Shown piece after piece: positions 38,710 to 38,792 of a stretch of 64,000 bases of DNA. The notes beneath the pieces were generated by a model. The model was not told the origin of the DNA and made no database searches. It was given only the letters and a program-made list of their open reading frames with translations. How positions within the stretch are numbered: position 1 is the first letter of the stretch; each line of letters opens with the position of its first letter. This DNA comes from Escherichia phage 92CQ. Location: sequence record PV682554.1; one strand, given 5' to 3'. The position numbers and the translations under genes were made by a program.

Positions 38710-38792
38710 AGCCGGGTAGATTTAAAAGAGTATGGTACTCAATATGGCTCCAAACCATAGATCAAGGGGTTCGATTCCTCACCTTGCTGCCA
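38710..38792 (+). tRNA. tRNA-Trp-like (anticodon CCA), atypical 5' half
   Basis: Standard anticodon hairpin TATGG-cTCCAaa-CCATA, T-arm AGGGG-TTCGATT-CCTCA, acceptor 3' strand and CCA; 5' half is 7 nt too long with one acceptor mismatch. Confidence 0.35.

Follow-up and report, generated by a model that had tools for sequence, protein, structure and literature searches.

The stretch of DNA considered here, a window of 64,000 nucleotides from Escherichia phage 92CQ (sequence record PV682554.1), comes from a phi92-like Escherichia coli myovirus (Justusliebigvirus, Stephanstirmvirinae), and its transfer RNA (tRNA) region is 97–99% identical to those of phi92, BME3, alia and others. This region holds a dense array of tRNA genes in which ARAGORN recognises 16 tRNAs, none of them tRNA-Trp, and in which Rfam at its gathering threshold recognises 15, including one missed by ARAGORN. 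Within the array lies the subject of this report, an element at 38710–38792 which a preliminary description, made from the letters of the sequence, had picked out as a tRNA-Trp-like gene with an expanded 5′ half. Its anticodon arm, acceptor 3′ strand and CCA end are found where they had been placed (Table 1). The ARAGORN run that had been proposed as a check was made, and the program calls the element neither in the window nor in any of the five homologous loci tested. Against the Rfam tRNA family (RF00005) the element scores 22.9 bits, with a gathering score of 29, and the best alignment starts wrongly at 38729. The 5′ boundary of the element is marked by the relatives SD2 and UAB_1, as homology begins there at about 38708 and the DNA upstream is replaced by an HNH endonuclease gene. 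Two open reading frames (ORFs) at 38762–39010 (minus strand) and 38784–38921 (plus strand) span tRNA genes and were treated as spurious.

Comparison with homologues shows, at the level of predicted structure, a tRNA with a rewired core: an 8-bp acceptor stem set on a 4-bp T stem, a single-nucleotide connector (A9), and a 3-bp helix between connector and variable region (helix X), which encloses a linker, a small hairpin with a GG in its loop and the anticodon arm. This combination of an 8/4 acceptor/T branch with a connector/variable-loop helix goes beyond the preliminary description, which had rightly found the 5′ half to be 7 nt too long: the stretch from the acceptor stem to the anticodon stem measures 26 nt, compared with 19 nt in E. 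coli tRNA-Trp, whose reference sequence was confirmed against 5,426 genomes. Set beside a canonical tRNA, the element falls below the detection threshold and has neither the 7-bp acceptor stem with a 5-bp T stem nor the two-nucleotide connector with the D arm directly after it; it does have the 5-bp anticodon stem with a 7-nt loop, a TΨC-type T loop, the D-loop GG, the discriminator and the CCA end.

Table 1. Coordinates of the tRNA array, of the Trp element and its predicted parts, and of a second tRNA discussed below.
Feature	Position	Strand	Remarks
Dense tRNA array	36097–38873	+	
Arg(UCU) tRNA, no D arm	36372–36453	+	Rfam 40 bits; ARAGORN silent
tRNA-Trp(CCA)-like gene	38710–38792	+	83 nt; between tRNA-Met 38573–38651 and tRNA-Ile 38798–38873
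Acceptor stem 5′ strand, 8 nt (AGCCGGGT)	38710–38717	+	pairs with 38781–38788; U8 (38717) forms the eighth pair
Connector A9, single nucleotide	38718	+	invariant in 31/31 sequences, not forced by the retrieval pattern
Helix X 5′ strand, GAT	38719–38721	+	pairs with 38761–38763
Linker TTAAAA	38722–38727	+	conserved TTAA/TAA motif
D-like hairpin	38728–38740	+	GAGT 38728–38731 / ACTC 38737–38740; loop ATGGT 38732–38736
Anticodon arm	38743–38759	+	TATGG / CTCCAAA / CCATA; anticodon CCA 38750–38752
Variable region GATCAA	38760–38765	+	ATC 38761–38763 is the helix X 3′ strand; A49 (38765) unpaired
T arm	38766–38780	+	4-bp stem GGGG 38766–38769 / CCTC 38777–38780; loop TTCGATT 38770–38776
Acceptor stem 3′ strand, 8 nt (ACCTTGCT)	38781–38788	+	partner of 38710–38717
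Discriminator and CCA end	38789–38792	+	G73 at 38789; genome-encoded CCA 38790–38792

The evidence for this fold is drawn from two alignments, both made with MAFFT from sequence only: A1, with 17 BLAST-derived sequences, and A2, with 31 distinct sequences. The homologue set was enlarged to the 31 sequences of A2 by pattern scans of viral contigs, metagenomes and genomes that left the stem positions free and fixed the T loop, C66, U68, U72, G73, CCA, TCCAA and TTAA; a first pattern for the viral contigs was too strict and returned close relatives only. Across A2 the full model has 92.8% of its cells paired, compared with 42–47% in controls in which the partners were slid, and the comparison with relatives that had been recommended at the outset thereby supports the fold. 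Cells changed on both sides number 228 under the model and 25–36 in the slid controls, and the covariation scores are 0.769 and 0.128 or less, respectively. Both-side changes occur in 19 of the 24 model pairs, and compensatory changes reach all five helices. The smaller alignment A1 gives the same picture for the acceptor stem from 38710, the small hairpin, the anticodon stem and the T stem, all of which covary. An all-against-all scan of its columns brought out two pairings that had not been assumed, of 8 with 65 and of 10–12 with variable-loop positions 45–47. In A2, the top 13 covarying, well-paired column pairs (among 3,167) are all pairs of the model. RNAalifold, supplied with no structure, recovered the 8-bp acceptor stem, the 4-bp T stem, the hairpin and the anticodon stem. 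The start at 38710 and the acceptor stem covary across phage subfamilies, which favours the suggestion, made in the preliminary description, of a tRNA with an unusual D-domain.

The acceptor/T branch departs from the canonical layout in a defined way. The acceptor columns (1–8 with 75–82) are 89.1% paired, with both-side changes in five of the eight pairs. Pair 8-65 is formed in 30 of the 31 sequences (UA in 17, GC in 5, AU in 3, UG in 3 and CG in 2), whereas the canonical pair 49-65 is formed in just 3 of 31; the branch is therefore 8/4, and a canonical 7/5 reading with the 49-65 pair fails. With 12 bp in all, the branch is as long as the canonical 7+5. The 8/4 branch is also given by RNAalifold unaided and by the minimum free energy (MFE) fold of the single window sequence, and the most divergent clade has a perfect 8-bp acceptor stem (ATCAAGGG/CCCTTGAT). 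The T stem is 98.4% paired in the 31 sequences, and RNAalifold separately yields 4 bp for it. The T arm had first been described as canonical, which holds for its TTCGATT loop and not for its stem, this being just 4 bp long since A65 (38781) pairs with U8 (38717).

Helix X is 96.5% paired in A2 and occurs in nine distinct sequences (GAU, AGU, GGU, GUU, GCU, ACU, ACC, AAC and GUC), with the complement matched each time. Its outer pairs are mainly GC (18) and AU (12) at 11-57, and UA (14) and CG (8) at 13-55. The middle pair, 12-56, is formed in 31/31 sequences by four different combinations (CG in 13, AU in 12, GC in 4 and UA in 2), and its mutual information ranks second among the 3,167 column pairs. 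Between the strands of helix X, the linker has invariant T12 and T13 and a TAA motif in every row of A1, where nothing was forced. The D-like hairpin is 91.7% paired in the 31 sequences, shows both-side changes in all four stem pairs and ranges from a canonical-looking form of 4 bp with a 9-nt loop (locus L050) to a tRNA-Sec-like form of 6 bp with a 4-nt loop (phage CR9); the GG of its loop (38734–38735) is invariant in all 31 sequences and was not imposed by the pattern. The anticodon stem is 92.9% paired, with both-side changes in 5/5 pairs. Finally, G80, C81, C82 and A83 at the 3′ end are invariant in A1, where they were likewise unforced. As an observation on the anticodon stem, three Certrevirus-type copies (L013, L008 and L053) have A·C as their last pair (31·39), which leaves a 4-bp stem (CCGGA/CCCGG).

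Several points weigh against this fold or against the strength of its support. The isolated 3-bp helix X is not predicted by RNAalifold, is disfavoured by the nearest-neighbour model (+2.3 kcal/mol, with a pairing probability of 0.22), and has a pyrimidine·pyrimidine combination as its third pair in Certrevirus and Mydovirus. The case for helix X is one of covariation, as is usual for tertiary-type helices. Within the acceptor stem of the window copy (7-nt strands AGCCGGG at 38710–38716 and CCTTGCT at 38782–38788), C4·U69 (38713·38785) does not pair, as had been noted from the start, and G5·U68 (38714·38784) is a wobble pair. Conservation at the positions fixed by the retrieval pattern is partly imposed, though the BLAST-derived set had already shown no variation at any of them, and since the sequences are akin to one another, independent events are fewer than the cell counts suggest. 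The alignment used to build R1, a covariance model of the family, contains the window sequence, and the 94.8 bits (E = 7e-28) which R1 assigns to 38710–38792 express family membership and not independent significance. R1 does separate members of the family (73–95 bits) from canonical phage tRNA-Trp (47–55 bits) and other tRNAs (39 bits or less). Scanned with R1, 446 kb of loci yielded no tRNA in which this architecture is combined with a different anticodon.

The element is widespread among large phages. BLAST with the interval alone finds it kept in more than 60 phage records: about 55 Justusliebigvirus genomes have it at 96–100% identity, Klebsiella Stephanstirmvirinae at 81% across the full 86 nt, and Ounavirinae (Hafnia phages, LPML1) at about 75%. 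Walking outward from these adds Certrevirus (CR3, CR8, CR9, POP15, F2M1E and KaOmega), Mydovirus (Mydo, Ro1 and Seu621) and Citrobacter phage Tr1, and the homologue set as a whole spans Stephanstirmvirinae, Ounavirinae, Vequintavirinae and metagenomic phage contigs, many of them from gut, rumen and fermentation samples. A scan of bacterial genomes returned a single match, on a 142-kb contig of a metagenome-assembled genome with a dense array of 18 tRNAs, which is probably a phage. The homologues always sit in an unannotated, tRNA-sized gap of an array, on the strand of the array and 0–10 nt from their neighbours, and the identity of these neighbours varies by lineage (Met and Ile, Ser and Thr, Glu and Asp, or Glu and Gln).

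Arrays that bear the element are otherwise without a canonical tRNA-Trp. At locus L030, 23 tRNAs cover every amino acid but Trp, and the element fills the single remaining gap. Phage BME3, whose element is identical to that of the window, was reported to have 16 tRNAs and no tRNA-Trp on the basis of tRNAscan-SE 2.0 and ARAGORN (PMC12210895). The element is unannotated in all records inspected from Certrevirus, Mydovirus, some Ounavirinae and metagenomic phages, and in several records a coding sequence for a "hypothetical protein" is laid over it. Standard tRNA finders miss the rewired core, and many large phages that apparently lack a tRNA-Trp probably carry one. Locus-tag numbers skip at the element in phi92 (FR775895.2, PHI92_t015 to t017) and in two Hafnia phages (MW749010.1 and MW749004.1, SARAHDANIELLE_93 to 95 and ZYZZX_92 to 94), which suggests that a feature had once been predicted there and was dropped before deposition.

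Further observations concern other tRNAs of element-bearing arrays. One gut-metagenome contig (L043) carries the rewired 8/4 Trp element at 7193–7275 together with an 88-nt "tRNA-Trp(cca)" called by ARAGORN on the minus strand (2479–2566), which combines G73 and a long variable arm and so amounts to a Trp anticodon on a class-II body. A tRNA with a CUA anticodon, labelled "Pyl" by ARAGORN, is present in five such arrays (L030 9301–9375, L042 5882–5956, L043 4711–4785, L061 9877–9967 and L066 2965–3055); these are possible amber suppressors. The 64-kb window has no such CUA-anticodon tRNA.

What the element does can be approached through its identity elements. Bacterial tryptophanyl-tRNA synthetase (TrpRS) recognises G73, the anticodon and the first acceptor pair (PMC9976931). 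The element has the anticodon C34 C35 A36 at 38750–38752, which is invariant in A1 where it was unforced, as well as G73 and A1-U72; within A2 the first pair is A1-U72 in 28/31 sequences and G1·U72 in 3/31, with U72 and G73 forced in the pattern-derived subset. The anticodon loop CUCCAAA, A1-U72, G2-C71 and G73 are the same as in E. coli tRNA-Trp, the gene for which is essentially single-copy in the host. We consider it probable, on these comparative grounds, that 38710–38792 is the gene for a working elongator tRNA-Trp (CCA), rewired in its core, which would be excised from a polycistronic transcript and charged by host TrpRS.

The steps of this proposal can be set out as follows. RNase P and 3′ processing would cut the tRNA free, since neither the 12-bp acceptor/T minihelix nor the encoded CCA is impaired; the 8+4 stack would preserve the minihelix that is read by RNase P, the CCA enzyme and EF-Tu. 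Charging by host TrpRS would proceed via G73, A1-U72 and the CCA anticodon, and is proposed because these are present together with an anticodon loop identical to that of the host. Helix X is separated by one nucleotide from the acceptor stem, by two from the T stem and by a single nucleotide from the anticodon stem, and because of these short joints it may stack on the anticodon stem in the usual place of the D stem. The GG hairpin would supply contacts of the G18/G19 type to the T loop. The charged element would decode UGG and add to the single-copy tRNA-Trp of the host during infection.

The transcript itself may be shared with neighbouring tRNAs. A TTGACA motif upstream of the element, to which the preliminary description had drawn attention, is present at 38689–38694. 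As a promoter it was rejected: it has no −10 element at 16–18 nt, and any −10 would sit inside the tRNA. Nor is it conserved, the upstream sequence being the HNH gene in SD2 and absent in KP13-26. Four strong promoter-like sites on the plus strand of the array (35763–35792, 36332–36360, 36472–36501 and 37944–37973) have TTGACA, a spacer of 17–18 nt and an extended −10 (TAnAGT/TAAGAT with an upstream TG), and three of them (36332, 36472 and 37944) end about 10–15 nt ahead of a tRNA. Promoter-like sites number 19 in all, compared with 7.6 expected from shuffles. This arrangement suggests that the tRNA array is split among several transcription units, and the Trp element would be co-transcribed with its neighbours, most likely from 37944, the nearest promoter upstream.

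An alternative that we regard as unlikely is that the element specifies a tRNA-shaped RNA that is made, and maybe charged, for a purpose other than ordinary UGG decoding, such as a nuclease decoy or sponge, a regulator or a primer. Its core is indeed far from canonical, and the irregular 8/4 tRNAs of Mukai et al. (PMC5389517) include some that were charged without decoding and some that remained uncharged, a precedent which also counts against the proposed decoding function. The conservation pattern speaks for a decoding tRNA: the 12-bp minihelix, the T loop, the GG, the 5-bp anticodon stem, the host-identical 7-nt loop, G73 and CCA are all kept, and the arrays in question are otherwise complete and short of Trp alone. 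No tRNA-Trp-specific nuclease of enterobacteria was found in the literature searched; an eLife paper on phage tRNAs and host nucleases does not mention Trp.

A second alternative, to which we give a low probability, accepts a functional tRNA-Trp and holds that its remodelled hinge lets it read UGA as well, which would make it a counterpart in nature to the Hirsh G24A and A9C mutants. Mutations at positions 9 and 24 of E. coli tRNA-Trp(CCA) permit UGA read-through, and the hinge concerned comprises positions 9–12, 23–26, 44 and 45 (PMC13092985); the element rebuilds precisely the hinge positions of tRNA-Trp. The Hirsh suppressor (E. coli tRNA-Trp G24A) and A9C resemble the element in their unchanged CCA anticodon and altered D arm or hinge (PMC13092985), and differ from it in being canonical cloverleaves with a point mutation, for which UGA read-through is proven, whereas the hinge of the element is rebuilt. 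A 4-bp anticodon stem in tRNA-Trp(CCA) has also been linked to UGA reading, there through loss of the top pair 27-43 (PMC13092985); the anticodon stem of the window copy has the normal 5 bp. Stop-codon usage offers a further hint. Among ORFs of at least 70 amino acids in the window, 66 end in TAA, 11 in TGA and 3 in TAG. All 11 TGA-ended ORFs have a second in-frame stop within 0–7 codons (median 2), whereas the median distance to the next stop is 9 codons for 64 TAA-ended ORFs (one-sided Mann-Whitney p = 0.0037). This contrast comes from crude ORF calls in the window only, with a small sample (n = 11), and TGA stops often lie in gene overlaps rich in off-frame stops, a likely confounder. TGA moreover remains in use as a stop (11/80 ORFs).

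Decay of a former tRNA-Trp gene, which the preliminary description had offered alongside an unusual D-domain, is very improbable. ARAGORN is silent, the Rfam score lies below threshold, the acceptor stem has a mismatch, and shuffled sequences give an MFE just as good (z = 0.35, a value that is uninformative, as is usual for tRNAs). One relative, in Pectobacterium phage DU_PP_I, has indels in its T arm beside an inserted HNH endonuclease gene. Set against this are compensatory changes in every one of the five helices, found in no fewer than three subfamilies of phages and in numerous metagenomic lineages, the invariance of GG, A9 and the anticodon loop, the presence of the element across subfamilies and its 98–100% conservation in about 55 Justusliebigvirus genomes. 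The mismatch, too, is a trait of the family: position 4·69 is unpaired in 18 of the 31 sequences, and canonical 7/5 phage tRNA-Trp genes (L026 447–520 and L032 8054–8127), which have very similar 3′ halves, also carry mismatches at 4·69 and 5·68. Their acceptor strands are of the types AGGTCGG/CCTTCCT and AGCTTGG/CCTTGCT, with pyrimidine·pyrimidine or G·U non-pairs at these two places. Being common to canonical relatives, the 4·69 mismatch is a trait of the lineage and not a sign of decay, and the rewired form itself probably arose from a canonical 7/5 phage tRNA-Trp gene of this kind. The copy in DU_PP_I (L018, 151–233) has indels in both the hairpin and the T arm and the HNH homing-endonuclease gene directly after it; it may be damaged, or affected by a homopolymer sequencing error.

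A tRNA almost without a D arm, starting at 38729 as in the best Rfam alignment (38729–38789, 22.9 bits, acceptor 5′ strand AGUAUGG at 38729–38735), can be dismissed as hardly credible: in A1 its stem reaches 64.7% pairing and shows no both-side change in any pair, the homology shared with SD2 and UAB_1 begins at about 38708, and its fold is 7 kcal/mol less stable than the MFE, so the different start that the preliminary description had named as a possible refutation falls away.

A functional tRNA-Trp with a rewired core would have company within the same array. The Arg(UCU) tRNA has a 7-bp acceptor stem, an invariant TAT and a 3-bp helix enclosing the anticodon arm, followed by a conserved GTAAKTGGAGTAT segment. 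This helix joins connector positions 11–13 to variable-region positions 40–42, is paired in 28/28 sequences at each position and covaries at two of them; the whole model is 94.6% paired in 28 distinct sequences, compared with 34–49% in slid controls. Full-length homologues are found in 253 phage records, where they are mostly unannotated and in one case labelled "tRNA-OTHER". Stretches of 82 nt in Mydovirus-type arrays (L054 3776–3857, L038 4940–5021 and L045 4630–4711), which ARAGORN does not call and R1 scores at 23 bits, carry the signature of the Arg(UCU) tRNA and are hence the Mydovirus copy of this second rewired tRNA.

The two tRNAs share a covarying 3-bp helix, formed by the 5′ connector and the variable region around the anticodon arm, and a conserved GG-containing segment, and both are widespread in enterobacterial phages. 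The Arg(UCU) tRNA differs from the Trp element in its 7/5 acceptor/T branch and its detection by Rfam, in having no hairpin between helix and anticodon stem, and in carrying its GG segment 3′ of the helix, in a variable region of 23 nt. Its helix directly abuts the anticodon stem, which supports the view that, in the Trp element, helix X stands in for the D stem. A more far-reaching idea, which we put forward as speculative and rather unlikely as a whole, is that large enterobacterial and gut phages possess a class of translation-competent tRNAs with rewired cores, in which a connector/variable helix has taken over from the D stem, and that the Trp hinge (9–12, 44–46) was rebuilt adaptively, for reading UGA in addition to UGG or for escaping a nuclease directed at the canonical tRNA-Trp core.

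Two other members of the array are unusual in less radical ways. The tRNA-Met at 38573–38651 (plus strand) is initiator-like, with a C·C mismatch at the first acceptor position and a D stem of apparently 5 bp, owing to which ARAGORN puts its anticodon at position 37; in some records it is entered as tRNA-fMet. The tRNA-Asn(GTT) at 37344–37428 (plus strand) is 85 nt long, unusually so for Asn and equally so in L030, L049 and L054, which suggests an extended variable region.

Among known tRNAs, the closest point of reference for the Trp element is E. coli tRNA-Trp (trpT), with which it shares the CCA anticodon, the CUCCAAA loop, A1-U72, G2-C71, G73, the encoded CCA, a 5-nt variable loop, a TΨC-type T loop and the spacing from GG to anticodon. 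The element differs in its 8-bp acceptor and 4-bp T stems (7/5 in E. coli), in the 10 nt from acceptor to D-like stem that hold A9, helix X and the linker (2 nt in E. coli), and in a D loop of 5 nt instead of 8. Variable-loop positions 45–47 paired in Watson-Crick fashion to the connector, C4·U69 and G5·U68 belong to the element only. Bacterial tRNA-Sec (8/5) likewise has an 8-bp acceptor stem and a compact D arm, comparable to the CR9-type hairpin with its 6-bp stem and 4-nt loop (PMC7609411). It is unlike the element in its 13-bp acceptor/T branch, long variable arm, UCA anticodon and Ser identity, and has no helix X.

The 8/4 and 9/3 tRNAs described by Mukai et al. (2017), which include phage and bacterial 8/4 tRNA-Ser and tRNA-His as well as irregular species with an extra loop or five-stem junctions (PMC5389517), are like the element in their 12-bp acceptor/T branch split 8/4, their occurrence in phage tRNA clusters and their being missed by, or irregular for, standard finders. 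As the text of that paper describes them, they are Ser, His, Cys, Sec or unassigned tRNAs, the majority having a long variable arm and an extended D stem capped by a tetraloop; their 8/4 "E-loop" tRNA1, from soil Acidobacteria, was uncharged in the assays reported there (PMC5389517). The element has instead a variable loop of 5 nt, a D-like hairpin that in the window copy has 4–5 bp and a 3–5-nt loop, and Trp identity elements, and thus lacks these traits of the allo-tRNAs. That text (PMC5389517) mentions no Trp and no connector/variable-loop helix. A 2020 review of non-canonical tRNAs has nothing like it, and the literature searched, mostly outside subscription journals, contains no description of a tRNA-Trp of the rewired kind. 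By this comparison of predicted folds, the element appears to be new, an 8/4-type tRNA equipped with an extra helix.

For the phages concerned, the finding means that published tRNA counts appear to be one gene short, as is documented for phi92-like phages (BME3, with 16 tRNAs and no Trp), and that analyses of phage tRNA content and codon compensation inherit the missing Trp gene. The rebuilt region coincides with the fidelity hinge of tRNA-Trp, and the element thereby provides a case from nature in which the influence of core geometry on decoding can be examined. Should the RNA prove active, an elongator tRNA could serve the bacterial ribosome with its D stem replaced by a helix formed from different strands. 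The limits of tRNA architecture would then widen beyond those known from mitochondria, tRNA-Sec and allo-tRNAs, and rewired cores of this kind would offer natural scaffolds for the engineering of orthogonal tRNAs.

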